Origin: Oceanispirochaeta sp.
GTDB taxonomy: Bacteria; Spirochaetota; Spirochaetia; DSM-2461
Direction: 5' to 3'
NCBI GenBank assembly: GCA_963666275.2
Contig: CAXXOA010000001.1
Coordinates: forward strand, 2,176,001-2,240,000
Length of the DNA stretch: 64,000 bases
This document shows, piece by piece, positions 6,001 to 51,000 of this stretch. How positions within the stretch are numbered: position 1 is the first letter of the stretch; each line of letters begins with the position of its first letter. Made by a program: the position numbers.

Positions 6001-9000
6001 TTCCAGGTGGCATAGTTATCATCCACCGAGAGAAAGGCAATGCGGGCATCAGCCGGTATCCCCTGGAAGTCCTCATCCTCAGGGACAAAATACTGTTTTG
6101 TTTTTCCTTTGAACTTATACCCCGTGGTTGTAATGGGAAAGGGCTCTTCCATCAGTTCCATAGTTTCCATGGAGGCGCTGATGTCCATGGGTTTCACCGA
6201 TTGTCCCTGCCCGTCCATAAGCCAGCCTTCTGTAAGAACTTCTATCCCGTCAATCTGATCATTAATCAGGGCTACCCTGTCATAATTGCCATAAGGATTT
6301 TCTTCATACGTGAGAACCATATCCCCCAGATAGGCAAAATCAGAATTGATAAGATCCAGTTCTGATTCCGTGGCATAGACATTAATGGCGGCAAGTTGAA
6401 TCCCAAGGGCATCTATCGGCTTTTCCTGTATAAAATAGCTGATCCCTTTAACTTCATAACGCCCCCGGGGAAGTGATTTGTAAAAGACTTCGTTTTGCTG
6501 AATTTCAAGGTATTCAATAACTTCCTCTCCATTTTCCAATTCCTTTGATAGAATCAGTGCCGCGGCCCTGTATTTTTCCGGAGGGATATTTTTTTCGGGT
6601 ATATTGATAGAGACTTTACCTGTGATATAGACGATTTCATCCGAAACCTGCTGGCCCGGAGCCAGATTTTCCGTATTCATGGACATACAGCCTGTGAGAT
6701 TAAAAAAGAGAAGAGAGAGAGTTAGAGCATAAACCTTTTTTTTCATAAATCCTCCAATAATTGTTTACATTTACGAGGTTTTATAATATACACATGTTTA
6801 TATTATTACAATAATGTGAACAAAATTTTATTTTTTATTTGTGCTGAAAACTAATCTAGCTCGTGGTACAGTTTAAAGGTATGGGGTCAAGGTCACCCCT
6901 GCCCTAAGGCCATCTTATCCGCCTCATAATTGGCATTAATCCGATCCATCCGGTTCATCTGCCCTGGCATCTCTTGCCTGCCGACTTGAGGCGGCGCAAA
7001 ACTCTGCCCACCGGCAGGCTGCCCCATAAAAGGAGACGCCCCGGAAGCAGCCCCCCGGCTCATTCCTCCCGGATGGGACAAAGTATCAGGGTTCCAGACA
7101 GAACCAGCCTGATTCTGCCTGACAGCTTTCACCGCGGCCGGTTTCCCATTGCGAAATGAAACCGTATTTCCTTGCCCTGAGAGTCCCTGAGTGTTTGGCT
7201 TGCGCAATGTCAGCCGGGAGGGAGGGGGAAATCCTTTCCCTGAAAGAGAATTACCTTTTACGGCTGTTGCAGTTTTCTCAACGAGTGTTTTTCCGGAGGG
7301 ACTTGAACTTGTGGAACCGGAAGAAATTGAAGCTTCAGGAAATACCAGATTCTCCACCCGGGATCCTGCGGCCTGAGGTTTCAATGCCTGAACACTATTC
7401 CTGGAAGGATTGATCCTGTACCCCAGGTTGCGGTAACCCTGACCGCCGAAGGAAGCGGTTGCCAAAGGGATCCGTTTGCTAACCCGGGGAATTCTGCTTA
7501 TTGGCGCTGCCTTTGGTGACGTCATACCGGGCAACGCCCTCCATTCCACCTACTTACTCTATAGCTTTTGCTATCAGCGGTTGCTTCATAAGATCCAATT
7601 TACCTGCAAACCATTAGGGTTGTCTGGTACAATGCCTTTCTTATGATCAACTATTCTTTCAAATCCAGAAATGCTCCGTACATCCAGCCTTTGATATAGC
7701 TTTCTTTCAATACGATTTTAAAGCAATTCATAATTTCTAATCGTTATAGACAATCAGTTCTCGATCTGTCACATCAATAATTGATTCACTATCAGCATCA
7801 AAATAGTAAACAAGTCTGTAAGTGTCTATTGTTTCTTTTCTGAAAGGGGTATCCTCTGAAGTTATTACAGAAAGAAAATCAACGTGCATATCTTTAATAA
7901 ATCCTGACTGATTCCTTAAGTATTCATTTTCAAACATGGAAATAATTTTTATATCAACAAGACTCTCAACTCCATTATCAAGATGTCTGGTCATTACTAA
8001 AATAGAGCATTTTTTATAAACCCTACGATACCCTGAAAGGTCACTTTTTACATCTCCAACCGTAAAAGATCCAAAATCATTCAGAAAATTAGTGAAATCA
8101 CCAGAGATTTCCAAGCCGATAAGGGAAGTGAGACCTAATGTTTCTCCACTTTCTATAATCGACTTAAGCTTTAATTCCAAGTCCTCTACTGTCAAACTGA
8201 ACAGAAAATGGGTTATTAATAAGAACAGGGTAATAAAAGATATTTTTTTCATTTATACTCCTCTTACTGTATATCCGTTGGATCAACGTAATAACGATTA
8301 TACCGATTCAAAACATCTGCATCTGGAGTGTCTACAATAGAGGCATTATCTCTATCCACATAACGCACTTCCATATGAAGATGTGGTCCAGTACATGCCG
8401 TTCCTGTATCTCCCGCATTGGCAAGATGATCCCCAACTTTAACAGGATCTTTATCTTTAACTTTTATTGAACCTTTCTGAAGATGAAATAGATTAAACTC
8501 ACCCCCATCCTCCAAAGTAATTCTTATAAAATAACCCAATTTCTTATTATGTTTAGCCTCTTTCACAACCCCTTCCACAGGCGAATACACAGGCTGCCCA
8601 ATCGTCTTATTCTGATTATTTTCTCTCCAAACCCAATCCTCACCAGCATGGGGATACGAAGCATCATAAGGATCTGTTTCTGCCAAGAACCCACCGCCTT
8701 CAACGCGCTTCCACCCCGGTTCAAACTGCTTGTAATACTCCGCAACCTCATCAGGCAGTTTTATCCGCCTCACTTCATTTTTCGCCAAATTCTCCCTCAA
8801 ATCCCAATACCACCTATCCATATCGTGGATATTATCCGGATTCTTTGTTCTGAATCTCATACCGGCTTCCGTCATCAATCCTATAACATACTCATCCGTC
8901 AATTCAGCCCCATCCATAGCTCTTTCCAGAATTTCTGTCAGACCTCCCTGAATGGCATCTTTTCCGATTGTTTTCGTTCCATTATAGGATGACATAATCT

Positions 9001-48000: not shown

Positions 48001-51000
48001 TGGCAAAATTGAAGATAATCCCTATCCAATGATTTACCAGAGGCTTTACCTGGAGACAGGGAATGGATTGAAATATCTGGATGAGGCGGAATATTTTCTT
48101 TCGTTCAACCGTCCGGGTCCCACAACAATTGGAATAGAAATTGGATCCCTGCAACCCTGGTCTCTGGAGGATGAATTTGGTTATTGGTCAGTTCTTTATA
48201 TTAAAAGTAAACAGTTAGGAATGTATGATTCAGTATCCTATGGACAATCTCATAGGGCCAAACGTGTTTACCTTGATGAGGAAGGTGAGAACATAGGACA
48301 GATAGATATTGAAGCCAGCAATCCTCTGATCGATTCCCAAAGACCTTTCCGCTATCTGATTCTCAACGCCTTCGATCAGAATCCGGCCACCAGTTATGTG
48401 GAGGATACAGAAGATGATTTGATGGACTTTGTAGGATTGTATTCAGATTCTTTACAAGTTTATCTACATAATAAAAAAACTGAATTAATAGGATTAAGAT
48501 TAGTTAATGGTTTTGCAAAAAATCAAAGACTATATTTTGAGAATAACATAATTACAAAAATTGGAAGTAATATCCTTAAAAAAACAATAGATTATCAGTT
48601 CATCAAGTATCCAGCACCTCAAATGTCTATTGGGATAGGATTTGGCGCAACAGAAATTAGTAAAGGAACAAAGTTTAATGACACTTGCTTAGCTGAGATT
48701 GATTGGCAACTAACAGATGGATCTTACCTTATAGGAGGTCGGTTTGAATAATTCTCGTATAAGAAATCTTCCAATTCCTTATTTTTCTCAACGGGAGAAT
48801 CTTTATTCTTGGAAACAAAGAGAGCCAGCATACAAAGGTATTGATGAAGTAACACAATTGCCAATTTCTAATCCCAATAAAGGTAACATCATCCAATGGA
48901 CATCAGAAGATGAAGCTATAGATCCAACCCATAAAGCAGGTACTCCAAAAAATCAAAGATCCCTGGCATATAGCAGCTGCAATATAACCTGTCTCTGTAT
49001 GGTGCTGAATTACCTGGGGATTTCCCATGAAACCCCGACTCAGATGCTTGAAAAAGCCTTTGATGTGAACGACCCCAAAAACACTGATTTTCTCAATCTT
49101 CTTAATGAAAGCGGATTAATCCTGAAACACAGGATTATCATCGGAAATGATATCTTTCACAAAGGTTGAAAGCACCTGCAGGGCGTTGGCGTTCATGCCC
49201 CCTTCGGGAATGATGATATCGGCGTAGCGTTTGGTGGGCTCGATAAACTCGAAATGCCCGGGGCGCACCACGTCCATATACTGCTTGATCACCGACTCCT
49301 GGGTTCTGCCCCGTTCGTTCACATCCCGCTGGAGCCGCCGGATAAAACGGATGTCATCGGGGGTATCCACAAAGATTTTAAGATCCATCAGATCCCGGAT
49401 GGGCTTTTCCGCAAAAATCATGATCCCCTCGAAGATAATGACCTTATGGGGTTCCACCCGGATGGTATCGTCCATCCTCCGGTGGTGGACAAAGTCGTAC
49501 TGGGGCATATCGATGGCTTTGCCGTTTTTCAGGTCCTTCAGATGCTGATACATCAGATCCTTGTCAAACGCATTGGGGTGGTCGAAGTTGAAGTCGGTGA
49601 TATTGCTGTTGGTGATAAACTCGGCGGACCGGTAGTAATTGTCCTGGGGAATAAACACAAAGTCCGAAATGCTCTCTGAGATCTTGCGGACAATGGTAGT
49701 TTTGCCCGATCCTGATCCCCCTGTAATGCCAATTAATACCGGTGCCTCTCTCATCACTGCTCTTCCTGTGCCTTCTGTTCTTCGATCTGCATCTCCAGAT
49801 CCGCCAGTTTTACCTGCAGAGCCTGAAGACTCTTTTCCAGACGCTTTTTCTGGGATTCCAGCTTTTTCAGGGTCATAACCGGTTCGGGCTTCTCCTTGCG
49901 GATAGCCTGTTTTACCTGATCCTGACTCTGGCCTTCCTTGAACGCACTCTCCAGCTCCTTCCGTTTCTGGGGTTCTTTCACAGAGGCGACGATTTTCATA
50001 TTTTCGTAACCGATCTCGGGGTCCACATCCATGGCGTAGACCTTCATAATCGATTTGGCCGAGTTCCGGTTCATCCCTAAAGCCCGGTCGACATAGTCTT
50101 CAAAAATGGCATGTTTCTGCTGGCACAGATCCAGGGCCTGAATCAGCAGTTTGCCGAAGTCTTTCATAACCTTGCCGTTGACAGACATGTACTTGTCCCG
50201 GATCTCCTGTGTGAGATCCCTGAACCGGGGATCCTCTTCAAATACATTGATATAGATTCCCTTCTCTTCCGCTACTTTCAGAAGGTTGTGGAAAATATCC
50301 CAGAAAAGGATGGTATGGGACCGCATGGTCACCTCCCCTTCGTGGCGGGTAAACTGAATATGGTGGGCAAACTCATGGATTGCCGTATAGACAAGGGCAT
50401 TATCATCGGTGAAATTTTTATTGTGAATGATAATTTCCTGCTTTTCCGGATGGTAGAGACCATCCACTTTTTTGCTGTTTTTCCCTGAAAATACAACAGA
50501 AAAATCGACCACTTCCGAATCTATCTGCAGCAGTTTTTCTTTTACCTGGTCCTGATTCATATAATATCCTTCACTCCAGCCCCTTTCAAACGGATCAAAC
50601 CTGTTATCAGGGGTATTTTTCTCATCGAATTTTGTCCTTACTCTAATGGGTCAGCTCCGATTTGTCCAGATCTCTGGTAACCCTCAGTGGAGCTGTGATA
50701 GTATCATTTCATGAATTTGATATCCGTGGACAAACTGACCATTAGCAAAGGAGGTCGCATCCTTGTGGAGGATGCTTCCTTCGGTATAGATACGGGGGAT
50801 AAAATTGCCCTGATTGGAACAAACGGCTCGGGAAAATCCAGCCTTATCAAGGTGCTGACGGGCAGAGACAACCCCGACGGAGGCACTGTATCCACCAATA
50901 ACGACCTCTATCTGAGCCAGGTGGAACAGCATCCCGCCTTCGAAGACAATGAAACCATTATGGACTTTATTTTCAGGGATGCCTCTCCCCAGATGGCCCT

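Follow-up and report, generated by a model that had tools for sequence, protein, structure and literature searches.

Genes of the contractile injection system

The window, a stretch of 64,000 nucleotides from Oceanispirochaeta sp., contains a complete contractile injection system (CIS), encoded on the chromosome between positions 5474 and 49169 and recognized by Pfam and NCBIfam profile searches. The core set given in a preliminary description of this DNA, with two sheaths, tubes, hub, baseplate, AAA ATPase and spike, was borne out by both databases. That description holds as a whole, with corrections to the second spike, the array end below position 7737 and a 3,100-aa protein. Genes lie on the minus strand unless the plus strand is indicated.

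The baseplate comprises a gp25/TssE-like wedge, or sheath initiator (39033..39470; Pfam GPW_gp25, E 2e-25), a Baseplate_J-like protein of 1006 aa (36038..39058; Pfam Baseplate_J 8e-16, NCBIfam TIGR02243 5e-85) and a Tail_P2_I/CIS12-like protein (30724..31620; Pfam Tail_P2_I, NCBIfam TIGR02242 8e-19). Sheath 1 (34236..35459, 407 aa; Pfam Phage_sheath_1/1C) is conserved with 76-79% identity in all five related genomes and shares 38% identity with sheath 2 (26087..27622, 511 aa; Pfam sheath domains). The tube components are a gp19/CIS1-like inner tube protein (33784..34212; Pfam Phage_T4_gp19 5e-23, NCBIfam CIS1_fam), a gp19, CIS5-like tube or tube adaptor (25657..26157; Pfam 1.8e-30, NCBIfam CIS5_fam) and a tube initiator with CIS_tube and LysM domains (25027..25647; Pfam CIS_tube 1e-34). 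The spike hub corresponds to gpD, or the N-terminal half of VgrG (23965..25014; Pfam Phage_GPD, NCBIfam VgrG_rel 3e-35). An AAA+ ATPase (21848..23380; Pfam AAA 8e-29) occupies an Afp15/Pvc15-type position and is probably the cargo loader. The set also includes a tail-assembly-chaperone-like protein (19610..20341; PHROG phrog_508 7.7e-9) and a LuxR/GerE-type regulator (39697..40389, plus strand; Pfam GerE 2e-9). An NrdG-like radical-SAM activase is encoded within the cluster (23414..23968; Pfam Fer4_12 4e-32, NCBIfam NrdG 2e-30, below cut-off), and its position is kept in locus L031.

Four further genes make up a membrane/FHA module. They encode a 458-aa protein with an N-terminal signal/TM segment (32407..33783; hydrophobic segment at residues 22-40), a 519-aa protein with a CIS13 (fibre)-like N-terminus (29184..30743; NCBIfam CIS13_fam 1e-9, below cut-off), an FHA-domain protein (28798..29175; Pfam FHA/Yop-YscD_cpl) and a membrane protein in which a VWA domain lies between two TM segments and a zinc ribbon forms the C-terminus (27623..28810; Pfam VWA, two hydrophobic segments). 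Homologues occur in 5/5 related genomes at 21-24% identity for the 458-aa protein, 43-46% for the 519-aa protein and 36-39% for the VWA protein, whose gene adjoins that of the 519-aa protein. Its strong conservation suggests that the 519-aa protein is a fibre or a baseplate-to-membrane adaptor; no variable tail fibre was recognized in the CIS locus. Since the module is conserved in all five relatives, an anchored, T6SS-like mode is as possible as the released particle implied by the label eCIS.

Cassettes and displaced ends of the carrier gene

The gene after the chaperone-like one, here called the carrier gene, encodes a protein of 1087 aa (16144..19407). It matched no family, tape-measure families included, in the profile searches, among them Pfam, PHROG and NCBIfam, and is termed tape-measure-like from its gene position and length. 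Homologues with 25-33% identity occupy the equivalent position in four related loci. The final ~25 codons of the gene change together with the cassette.

Three low-GC triads of a DUF4157 protein, an effector and an exported protein had been reported, and they were confirmed (eCIS_core E 1.6e-19 to 1.6e-20; GC 0.28-0.42, against about 0.45-0.55 for the structural genes). The DUF4157 proteins are 48-51% identical to one another, and alignment verified that the effectors have only ~76-80 N-terminal residues in common (30-34% identity). In cassette 1, the small DUF4157 protein (15313..16143; HELEH; Pfam eCIS_core 1.6e-19) is accompanied by an effector with the shared N-terminal domain (NTD) and a CHAP/NlpC-P60-like domain (14543..15313). 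This effector appears CHAP/NlpC-like from several concordant but weak matches: Pfam CHAP at 0.0098, below the curated cut-off, phrog_329 at 1.6e-5, endolysin and tail hydrolase PHROGs, and Atlas CHAP/NlpC clusters at 0.95. Its exported partner, a candidate immunity protein (14017..14553), carries an N-terminal hydrophobic segment (KD 2.17). Cassette 2 consists of the DUF4157 protein (12803..13606; HEAEH; 3.3e-20), an effector (11948..12751) identified by NTD alignment, whose C-terminal domain has neither homologues nor a recognizable fold, and a lipoprotein partner (11169..11951; lipobox LLSC). In cassette 3, the DUF4157 protein (9484..10305; HEVEH; 1.6e-20) precedes an effector with the NTD and Peptidase_M23 (8264..9472; Pfam 8.3e-15). 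The M23 domain noted before is present, with readable HAGED and HLH motifs, and the protein can be assigned firmly, by sequence, to the M23 cell-wall hydrolases. Its exported partner, again a candidate immunity protein (7737..8252; signal-type N-terminus, KD 2.57), has one homologue, at 69% identity.

The NTD is represented by seven sequences among 1.84 billion proteins, N-terminal in all; two of them carry M23 and one NlpC_P60. It would thus mark a polymorphic toxin family. Alignment with the effector NTDs of related loci is weak (hhalign probability 17%).

A displaced copy of the carrier 3' end lies ahead of each later triad. Remnant A (13601..13973; ORF 13608-13922) has 85% DNA identity to 16138-16512. 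In remnant B (10302..10835), which shares 77% protein identity with the 1087-aa protein, 10381-10798 is 89% identical in DNA to 16214-16631. The longest, remnant C (6896..7534), has 86% DNA identity over 640 bp to 16276-16914 and is itself truncated, with its final ~45 codons absent. The array had been thought to start at 7737. Because the ORF at 6893-7549 below that point is a copy of the carrier 3' end, the array extends to ~5474, through remnant C and a 409-aa lipoprotein (5517..6746; lipobox LTGC) that is possibly the product of an orphan immunity gene. Downstream of that gene lies the best terminator-like hairpin (5474-5495).

The four copies of the carrier 3' end have nested 5' ends and share 85-94% DNA identity over blastn segments, and the cassettes beside them show ~50% protein identity or are unrelated. 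Divergence climbs sharply ~25 codons ahead of the stop codon, and GC falls abruptly between the remnants (0.53-0.55) and the cassettes (0.28-0.42). The copies have no frameshifts and dN/dS is 0.21-0.30 across all six pairs (remnant against remnant, 0.24-0.30), which suggests that they diverged under selection in separate lineages; values below 1 would equally be expected of remnant ORFs that are still translated and useful. The assembly was checked independently: every cassette is spanned without difference by contigs from three sequencing runs of one sample, and these contigs end solely within the repeated 3'-end copies.

Such arrays might have arisen by local tandem duplication of the carrier 3' end together with its triad, followed by divergence in place and with no import of foreign cassettes. 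Tandem direct repeats can stem from this process, the three DUF4157 genes are plainly paralogous, and a Treponemataceae MAG (L023) holds two cassettes that are a recent duplicate (96.6% identity over 3560 bp). Local duplication is nevertheless judged improbable, as the non-functional remnants are better preserved in DNA than the adjoining functional genes are in protein, the effector C-terminal domains are mutually unrelated, dN/dS between remnants is not ~1, and both the identity and the GC content change abruptly at the cassette. The preferred reading is the entry of cassettes by recombination. This architecture was found in four of the five loci with the tape-measure family (the window, G270, the Treponemataceae MAG and another MAG, labelled Paratractidigestivibacter); the Breznakiella locus has no displaced remnants within 20 kb.

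Spike tips and their neighbours

The spike genes and those following them are on the plus strand. A plain gpV-type spike of 240 aa (40319..41041; Pfam Phage_base_V 1.4e-16) is followed by a spike with a PAAR-like region and a variable C-terminal tip of ~100 aa (41041..42927; Phage_base_V 1.8e-23, PAAR_motif below cut-off), in which a breakpoint lies at codon ~520. Next come an exported F5/8-type-C (NADase_transloc-like) protein, a candidate immunity protein (42905..44035; Pfam 2e-9) whose signal-type N-terminus is counted from an internal Met, and an 819-aa Peptidase_C39_2 (papain-like) protein, a candidate spike-borne effector (44001..46460; Pfam 1.3e-12, endolysin PHROG 2.7e-5). The F5/8-type-C family also occurs after C39_2 and YkuD-like effectors (YkuD 0.0023, below the curated threshold) in L031 and G270.

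The sequence at 46673..47593, previously taken for a second spike, is a displaced 5'-truncated fragment of 306 aa, matching the full-length spike from residue ~329 to ~620 and bearing its own tip module. It is 92% identical in DNA to the spike over 555 bp, to codon ~522, and then divergent, a scar like that at the carrier gene. A second exported F5/8-type-C protein (47597..48751; Pfam, signal-type N-terminus) and a truncated C39_2 gene (48744..49169, 141 aa; Pfam 3.3e-5) follow, and the product of the latter is 49% identical to the N-terminal part of the 819-aa protein. The spike polymorphism described for contig C2 was verified: residues 1-518 are 90% identical to the window spike, and those beyond are unrelated. 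A 777-aa protein on C2 matches NlpC_P60 at 0.0041, below the curated threshold.

Partner proteins, proposed cargo routes and cassette exchange

Each toxin is encoded beside a Sec-exported protein or a lipoprotein, and all third genes of the triads have such N-termini by a crude hydrophobicity scan. Across the window and related loci, partners with signal-type N-termini, judged by crude hydropathy and not by a trained predictor, accompany 8/8 cell-wall-type effectors and 0/4 nuclease effectors, a contrast that overstates independence because related pairs are counted (a single locus contributes three of the four nuclease pairs, including two near-duplicates). In a related locus of the same CIS lineage, a YezG-like immunity protein (Pfam 1e-24) occupies the partner slot beside an Endonuclea_NS_2 nuclease, and in related loci an Ntox30 effector is paired with a small cytoplasmic protein. 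Together with the cell-wall hydrolase type of two of the three triad effectors, these data support the effector-immunity logic proposed earlier, and the locus would fit an antibacterial system of this kind. Most likely, the partner protects sister cells by neutralizing the toxin in their periplasm.

To our knowledge, the classical eCIS all act on eukaryotic cells. This precedent speaks for eukaryote targeting or another non-bacterial role resembling that of Afp, PVC or MACs, in which the hydrolases might serve producer lysis and release or envelope penetration, and the small exported proteins might be lysis regulators, spanin-like factors or unrelated lipoproteins. Peptidoglycan hydrolases are also penetration enzymes of phage tails, where no immunity proteins are needed, and this counts against the weapon reading; moreover, the cassette 2 effector has no assigned function. 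Geller et al. (PMC8213781) mention that such toxins might aid producer lysis. A non-bacterial role still seems unlikely. The hydrolases are either joined to the shared cargo-type NTD or part of a tube fusion, and those in DUF4157 cassettes bear the signature of CIS cargo published in PMC11297309. Relatives fill the same slot with nuclease toxins and cytoplasmic partners, one of them the YezG-like protein. Partner localisation follows toxin type, and lysis would not require three to seven diversified hydrolase-partner pairs.

A machine acting in or on its producer, like the cytoplasmic Streptomyces CIS, would send the hydrolases into the producer's envelope to bring about regulated lysis or differentiation. 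The conserved membrane/FHA module suggests docking at the producer membrane, and the conserved 519-aa protein in place of a recognizable variable fibre agrees with this. Yet an exported partner beside each hydrolase would oppose self-lysis, polymorphic and horizontally exchanged toxin-partner cassettes are typical for strain-versus-strain antagonism, and the nuclease toxins and immunity proteins of relatives suit delivery into other cells; self-action is therefore regarded as very improbable. With moderate confidence, the locus is considered a complete chromosomal CIS of a conserved spirochaete lineage, most likely an interbacterial weapon with exchanged cassettes.

Under this reading, cargo might be loaded by three routes, and the recognizable toxin domains would degrade peptidoglycan. 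In the tube lumen, the stand-alone DUF4157 protein, encoded right after the tape-measure-like gene, would couple an effector bearing the shared ~85-aa helical NTD to the tape-measure/tube-initiator core. This coupling is inferred by analogy with Sle2/Sle1 and AlgoCIS cargo. In a published case, both the tube initiator and a tape-measure-related effector are bound by a small DUF4157 protein (PMC13277306), and AlgoCIS cargo is loaded by means of a loading sequence at its N-terminus and with an AAA+ ATPase (preprint 10.64898/2026.05.27.728243). At the spike, the ~100-aa tip of the spike-PAAR protein co-varies with the neighbouring large papain-like protein (C39_2 or NlpC/P60-like). In the third route, an M23 peptidase would be delivered as a fusion to a tube protein.

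The sequence patterns show that new cassettes came in repeatedly through homologous recombination, for which the conserved 3' part of a carrier gene was the site. For the tape-measure-like carrier, the swapped unit is its final ~25 codons with the DUF4157, effector and partner genes; for the spike, it starts at codon ~520 and takes in the tip and the partner genes. Each entry shifted the prior 3' end and its cassette downstream, leaving intact "orphan" cassettes separated by carrier-gene remnants. Through these direct repeats, cassettes can also be cut out or rearranged.

The general idea has precedents in print, both for a non-canonical CIS with toxin-immunity pairs and for DUF4157 acting as an adaptor in trans (PMC8213781, PMC11297309, PMC11566945, PMC13277306); the pairs were demonstrated in PMC8213781 and PMC11566945. 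No description appears to exist of the displaced-end arrays or of the conserved lineage that carries the membrane/FHA module.

The preliminary description had also proposed cassette-like exchange at three loading points: the DUF4157 adaptor, the spike tip and the tube. Exchange is upheld at two points, the 3' end of the tape-measure-like gene and spike codon ~520, both with displaced remnants, but not at the DUF4157 gene itself or the tube. The 3,100-aa protein included in that description lies outside the window (window-equivalent 71142-80444) and has a Sec-type signal of its own at the N-terminus. Neither a second sheath set nor TssC was found in the genome, so that the C2 spike and the tube-M23 fusion on contig C1 have only this CIS to serve. 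The tube gene shows no sign of recombination; the fusion, which was confirmed (M23 5.6e-22), is a separate tube paralogue flanked by group II introns.

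Composition of the injection system

The genome, which comprises 5.27 Mb in three contigs with the window in contig C1, encodes three FlaA periplasmic-flagellum sheath proteins, as fits a spirochaete. A complete contractile injection system (CIS) occupies 39470 to about 5474 of the minus strand and 39697 to 49169 of the plus strand. Its flanks carry housekeeping genes; capsid and DNA-packaging genes were not seen, although no search aimed at capsid genes was made. Its core, as recognized by Pfam and NCBIfam, includes gp25, a 1006-aa Baseplate_J protein, a Tail_P2_I/CIS12-like protein, a gpD-type hub, an AAA+ ATPase and a LuxR-type regulator. 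Sheath and tube belong by their Pfam families to the Afp/PVC/AlgoCIS kind, with two Phage_sheath_1/1C proteins (38% identical to one another), two Phage_T4_gp19-type tube proteins and one CIS_tube-LysM tube initiator. The baseplate (gp25, gpJ, gpI) and the spike complex (hub, gpV spike, PAAR) are both present, the latter with two gpV-type spikes; the PAAR_motif falls below cut-off in the window spike and above it (34.6 bits) in a spike encoded on the second contig, C2. The ATPase is of the Afp15 type (AAA, 8e-29), and it is accompanied by three eCIS_core (DUF4157) proteins, whose genes are the only DUF4157 genes of the whole genome. A second sheath set is absent from the genome. TssC (VipB, PF05943) gave 0 matches in this 97%-complete genome and the E. 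coli control was positive, so that the canonical TssB/TssC sheath was not found. The tail terminator/cap family PF14065 (Afp16, Pvc16_N) had no match in the genome, but the control genomes were equally silent; a 183-aa ORF (35487-36038) of no matching family lies at the usual terminator/cap position.

A CIS with effector triads and variable spikes had been reported in the preliminary description, and this observation was confirmed with three corrections. A 3,100-aa protein with a C-terminal M23-like HLHWE motif had been counted as part of the system as well. It was rejected as a component, having its own Sec-type signal and lying outside the window, 22 kb past the spike array (C1:2247142-2256444, equivalent to window 71142-80444), and it probably has nothing to do with the injection system and is secreted or located at the surface.

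Several additional genes accompany the core. An NrdG-like radical-SAM activase (23414-23968, minus strand) is located between the spike hub and the AAA+ ATPase, and the same layout is found in a related locus (L031:1053-1601); it is an unexpected, apparently conserved component of this CIS lineage without obvious role. Just upstream of the tape-measure-like gene there is a pair formed by a pentapeptide-repeat protein (20893-21621, minus strand) and a protein of about 150 aa (20532-21014, minus strand), which is conserved in related loci (L028:4233-4931; L018:195-605). At the far end of the spike array, a 268-aa ORF (49754-50560, minus strand) shows weak metallopeptidase-type matches (DUF6782, SprT-like; E 7e-4 to 9e-3).

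Carrier genes and their displaced ends

A gene for a 1087-aa protein (16144-19407, minus strand) comes after a tail-assembly-chaperone-like gene (phrog_508, 7.7e-9). Its product has no match in Pfam, PHROGs, NCBIfam or PDB sequences, and homologues with 25-33% identity occupy the same position in four other loci, sharing a C-terminal NANYE...VGHAEG motif. Because of the chaperone-like neighbour and the co-positioned homologues, it is called tape-measure-like here. It is followed by three triads, each consisting of a small DUF4157 gene (15313-16143, 12803-13606 and 9484-10305), an effector gene and a gene for an exported partner. The triads and their array stand as originally described; the ORFs between them had been overlooked, and the array continues below the start assigned to it. 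In the high-GC ORFs 13608-13922 and 10302-10835, between the triads, and in 6893-7549, the 3' end of the tape-measure-like gene is found again as a copy. Their 5' ends are nested, with 373, about 480 and 640 bp kept. The four copies show 85-94% DNA identity over blastn segments and 75-85% in a gap-containing four-way alignment. Similarity stops abruptly about 25 codons before the stop, after which each cassette has its own tail, DUF4157 gene, effector and partner. The GC content of the remnants (0.53-0.55) is like that of the structural genes, and that of the cassettes is 0.28-0.42.

In the conserved block, dN/dS is 0.21-0.30 for all six pairs, with no frameshifts, which argues that the copies diverged while each was a working gene end. 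Repeated import of a unit made of the 3' end and its cassette by homologous recombination fits this pattern, and local duplication and decay fits it poorly. In the import scheme, a single crossover of a circular fragment would join a new end and cassette to the gene and push the old end and cassette downstream. Truncation also affects the last remnant, behind which come a lipoprotein gene (5517-6746) and then the best terminator-like hairpin of the region (5474-5495). A promoter and terminator scan, with counts near the shuffled expectation, revealed no comparable hairpin between cassettes, and all of them may therefore be co-transcribed. In an independent check, contigs from three runs of one sample covered every cassette without difference, with breaks inside repeats only.

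The spike gene provides a second carrier. The full spike of 628 aa (41041-42927) comprises a gpV OB domain, a PAAR-like region and C-terminal Ig-like modules. What had been taken for a second spike in the window (46673-47593) is a 306-aa fragment corresponding to residues ~329-620 of the full one, with 92% DNA identity over 555 bp and divergence from codon ~522. Judged by its sequence, this fragment is a displaced-end scar of the same kind as the tape-measure-like remnants. The C2 spike is full-length and 90% identical up to residue 518, beyond which an unrelated prealbumin-like module is found. The neighbours differ too. The full window spike lies beside genes for an exported F5/8-type-C protein and an 819-aa Peptidase_C39_2 protein. 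Next to the fragment are the gene of another exported F5/8-type-C protein and a C39_2 gene that is truncated. Beside the C2 spike, an exported YARHG protein is encoded together with a 777-aa protein whose end is NlpC/P60-like (E 0.0041) and shows, by eye, a DCSGF motif. By eye, the C-terminal half of the 819-aa protein also seemed to hold an M23-like motif, which was discarded, as Pfam gives it no support. Two IS66-family transposase genes lie directly after the C2 island of spike, 777-aa and YARHG genes (11547-13118 and 14162-15733 of the locus C2:618000-634000). With displaced gene ends behind two carriers, the earlier proposal of cassette-like exchange by recombination is strengthened.

The tube had also been proposed as a point of cassette exchange. 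A 357-aa ORF at 1.04 Mb of C1 (L002:5787-6860) fuses Phage_T4_gp19 (8e-28) to Peptidase_M23 (5.6e-22); the tube part and the window tube (25657-26157) share 60% identity, and an exported 287-aa protein is encoded 3' of it. Fusion and partner are flanked by two 99.5% identical group II introns with reverse transcriptase/maturase ORFs in direct orientation (3365-4918 and 7715-9268 of L002, C1:1035000-1047000), and a third, diverged copy lies at 11123-11974. These introns could mobilise the tube-M23 pair or mark an insertion hotspot. No sign of recombination was found at the main-locus tube gene, and this putative swap point comes down to a separate, intron-flanked paralogue.

Effectors and their exported partners

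The three small DUF4157 proteins (267-276 aa) are 48-51% identical over their full length and have an intact HExxH motif. Each of their genes is followed by an effector gene, and the effectors share just an N-terminal domain (NTD) of about 85 residues (30-34% identity), with C-terminal parts that differ. Effector 3 (8264-9472) is a Peptidase_M23 protein (E 8e-15). For effector 1 (14543-15313) weak signals agree, namely Pfam CHAP (0.0098), three PHROG tail/lysis hydrolase families (best 1.6e-5) and nearest Atlas neighbours in CHAP/NlpC clusters at 0.95, and these suggest a CHAP/NlpC-P60-like enzyme. Comparison of effector 1 with PDB sequences gave chance-level matches only. Homologue searches with the C-terminal domains of effector 1 and effector 2 (11948-12751) returned the query alone; an Atlas look-up of the effector 2 domain returned unrelated phage clusters, which were disregarded, and its structure prediction had an unusable mean pLDDT of 36. 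The domains assigned to the effectors are those of peptidoglycan hydrolases, as in effectors of the Tae/Tai kind, with M23 firm in two proteins, C39_2 in one, a weak yet consistent CHAP/NlpC assignment in two, and none for effector 2.

An NTD profile recovered only seven representatives among 1.84 billion proteins, with the domain N-terminal in all; M23 is present in two, NlpC_P60 in one, and no family exceeds the threshold in four. In a sample of 401 genomes of the phylum, nothing credible was found beyond this genome. From these representatives and this sample, the NTD effectors appear to be a rare polymorphic toxin family dominated by cell-wall hydrolases.

The gene 3' of each effector is low in GC (0.28-0.32), and the N-terminus of its product is positively charged and strongly hydrophobic. 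In a crude hydropathy and lipobox scan, signal-type N-termini were found in all partners of the window, with a lipobox LLSC in one of the three triad partners, and the hydropathy scan showed none in the effectors or the DUF4157 proteins. A complex prediction for the M23 effector (residues 86-402) and its partner (21-171) scored 0.00 with a poorly folded partner, and has no bearing either way.

Related loci extend this comparison to toxins of other types. A DUF4157 profile matched 4 of the 401 sampled genomes, this one included. A scan of named genomes, with a five-sequence alignment as query, gave 77 loci across many phyla, most of them with DUF4157 fused to large toxins; two or more DUF4157 ORFs were present in 39 of 79 loci inspected. 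Searches of genome contigs with the three window DUF4157 proteins confirmed no related locus, and the M23 effector alignment gave one weak, M23-only match in metagenome contigs, which was not used. The tape-measure family and small DUF4157 proteins occur together in five loci: the window, genome G270, the Treponemataceae MAG OY762953.2, the MAG CAVIQW010000008.1 labelled Paratractidigestivibacter, and Breznakiella homolactica RmG30. Carrier remnants precede extra cassettes in four of them (three in the window, two in G270, at least three in OY762953.2 and one in CAVIQW010000008.1), and none was seen within the 20 kb examined of B. homolactica. In the cassettes of the relatives, exported F5/8-type-C proteins accompany two effectors, one of them YkuD-like (sub-threshold) and the other a C39_2 protein, the latter pairing being also seen beside the window spike. 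Ntox30 is paired with a 126-aa cytoplasmic protein, and three Endonuclea_NS_2 effectors with small cytoplasmic proteins, one of which is Pfam YezG-like immunity (1e-24). Over all loci, signal-type N-termini occur in the partners of 8/8 cell-wall-type effectors vs 0/4 nuclease effectors (Fisher test, p = 0.002, for pairs that are non-independent and include three sub-threshold enzyme assignments). The effector NTDs of the other loci align with one another; the window NTD matches them co-linearly with an hhalign probability of 17%, which is not significant.

Cell-wall hydrolase effectors, exported partners and a partner location that tracks the toxin type strengthen the reading of the third genes as putative immunity proteins. 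The overall interpretation first given to the locus is accordingly supported in part, namely in immunity and cassette exchange but not in the tube as a swap point or in particle release, and the locus may be regarded as a CIS carrying effector-immunity cassettes, the turnover mechanism of which can be read from the DNA. The small DUF4157 proteins are proposed to couple the NTD effectors to the core of tape-measure and tube initiator, and the co-varying 25-residue carrier tail may be part of effector docking. With the HExxH motif intact, DUF4157 could also have the role of a releasing protease. For the DUF4157 protein, structure prediction from eight sequences reached a mean pLDDT of 53, and 75-80 for the DUF4157 core alone.

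Relation to known systems and possible anchoring

In Rhs, CdiA-CT and MafB systems, a conserved carrier gene is followed by alternative toxin-immunity modules, each headed by a fragment of the carrier 3'-region; the orphan cassettes are lower in GC and exchanged by homologous recombination, the toxin is the C-terminus of the carrier polypeptide, and the orphans are promoterless toxin tips. Similarly, carrier 3'-fragments head lower-GC downstream cassettes here, with three tape-measure-like remnants and one spike remnant in this genome and further displaced ends in three other loci. Unlike in Rhs and CdiA-CT, the toxins are complete separate ORFs, and the carrier varies over about 25 codons (tape-measure) or about 100 (spike); the orphan cassettes may therefore still be expressed. 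The T6SS has Tae/Tai amidase-immunity pairs, VgrG/PAAR C-terminal adaptor domains and Hcp-toxin fusions. The present system resembles it in predicted peptidoglycan-degrading effectors with candidate periplasmic immunity proteins, spike-tip extensions that would specify the cargo and a tube-toxin fusion, and differs in the absence of TssC, the phage/eCIS-type sheath and tube, the Afp15-type AAA+ ATPase, the DUF4157 proteins and the tape-measure-like gene.

Among phage-tail-like particles, the available text on Streptomyces lividans describes a tape-measure-related Sle1 adjoining the small DUF4157 protein Sle2, which binds Sle1 and the tube initiator, and functional modules that vary from species to species, one of them followed by an immunity gene (PMC13277306). 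By gene order, the window and the four related loci are alike in having a long tape-measure-related protein directly beside a small DUF4157 protein. In contrast to Sle1/Sle2, the toxin is here a third, separate protein with its own shared NTD and has an exported partner, variation in the carrier is confined to the last ~25 residues, and the cassettes are stacked with displaced carrier ends. In AlgoCIS of Algoriphagus machipongonensis, as far as the accessible part of the preprint goes, cargo is brought into the tube lumen through a disordered N-terminal loading sequence, with the help of an AAA+ ATPase; a single polypeptide there comprises NTD, DUF4157 and toxin, and loading proceeds without DUF4157 (preprint 10.64898/2026.05.27.728243). 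DUF4157-associated cargo (there Cgo1 and Cgo2), the AAA+ ATPase and a marine bacterium are common to both; here, however, DUF4157 protein and toxin come from different genes, with an exported partner encoded beside every toxin.

The membrane-bound CIS of Halogeometricum borinquense ('archaeal T6SS') has, in the portion of the article available, DUF4157 toxins, immunity partners and contact-dependent antagonism (PMC11566945). The two systems share a non-canonical CIS cluster, DUF4157 proteins and downstream candidate immunity partners; the haloarchaeal antagonism has been shown and its anchoring was seen by tomography, whereas here the particles may be anchored or released. The haloarchaeal toxins mostly contain DUF4157 themselves, and the same portion of that article reports no displaced-end arrays, spike-tip cassettes or tube fusions. 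The surveys of Geller et al. (2021) and Danov et al. (2024) place, in their available text, DUF4157 beside or within toxins at operon 3' ends, and describe some eCIS toxins as antibacterial and some as having immunity genes, with most antibacterial ones lacking recognisable immunity genes (PMC8213781, PMC11297309); a chaperone role of DUF4157, in cis or in trans, is proposed in the latter (PMC11297309). Unlike in these surveys, every effector here has a partner whose location fits the toxin type, and the accessible sections of both contain no cassette turnover mechanism. A Bacteroidales CIS cargo is, according to part of its report, active only if sent to the periplasm (PMC12210884).

With these published precedents, T6SS logic in a phage-tail-like system is not new in general. 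In full-text literature searches, no description was found of displaced carrier-gene ends heading CIS cassettes, of spike-tip orphan arrays in CIS, of tube-toxin fusions outside the T6SS or of this spirochaete CIS lineage; 'Spirochaet' is absent from the main texts of PMC8213781 and PMC12210884, whose supplements may list spirochaete loci. The way in which phage-tail-like injection systems select and replace their cargo is an unsolved question, for which this locus and its relatives offer a clean natural example, with a partner for every toxin whose location in the cell suits the target of that toxin. The scars mark the exact exchange junctions, about 25 codons before the end of the tape-measure-like gene and at spike codon ~520, and these junctions are handles for cargo loading and engineering. 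The C-terminal displacement mechanism of Rhs/CDI would thereby be extended to contractile injection systems. The presence of the same lineage in gut, oral and termite Treponemataceae means that it may shape spirochaete competition in host-associated communities.

Three envelope or signalling genes lie inside the cluster, encoding a 458-aa protein with a signal/TM segment, an FHA protein and a TM-VWA-TM-zinc-ribbon protein. The 458-aa and VWA-TM proteins and a neighbouring 519-aa protein are conserved in 5/5 related genomes. The 519-aa protein has a sub-threshold CIS13-like N-terminus, the only fibre-type match found, and is 43-46% identical across five relatives; being so conserved, it is unlike a variable receptor binder. 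A tentative reading, rather doubtful as a whole, takes the locus as the first example of a contractile system, so far undescribed, that is anchored in the spirochaete envelope and resembles the T6SS, and that host-associated Treponemataceae would share. Such a system would have two sheaths and, instead of variable fibres, the 519-aa adaptor with the FHA, VWA-TM-zinc-ribbon and 458-aa exported proteins. A swappable docking pair, made up of the last ~25 carrier residues and the cognate small DUF4157 protein, would choose the tube effector, and the remnant-separated arrays would act as a recombination-driven switch or reservoir, in which excision and re-insertion between direct repeats alter the head cassette.

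Some features of the relatives deserve mention. The sheath is 76-79% identical across five genomes (G270, G152, G401, G402 and G403) whose tape-measure-like proteins are 25-33% identical, and one of the five is a MAG labelled as an actinobacterium (Paratractidigestivibacter). The contrast between sheath and carrier suggests that constraint is very strong, that the cluster has recently spread horizontally or that a contig is mis-binned. On the second contig of G270, the sheath-to-sheath block (~4.8-29 kb) and the tape-measure array (~88-104 kb) are apart, so that the system is split by roughly 60 kb. In an uncultured Treponema MAG (CAJUBD010000024.1), the effector after a small DUF4157 gene (L024:10348-11454) has a Serum amyloid A domain (PF00277, E 2.8e-19), so that a domain of vertebrate type occupies a bacterial CIS cargo slot; a 144-aa lipoprotein-like partner comes next.
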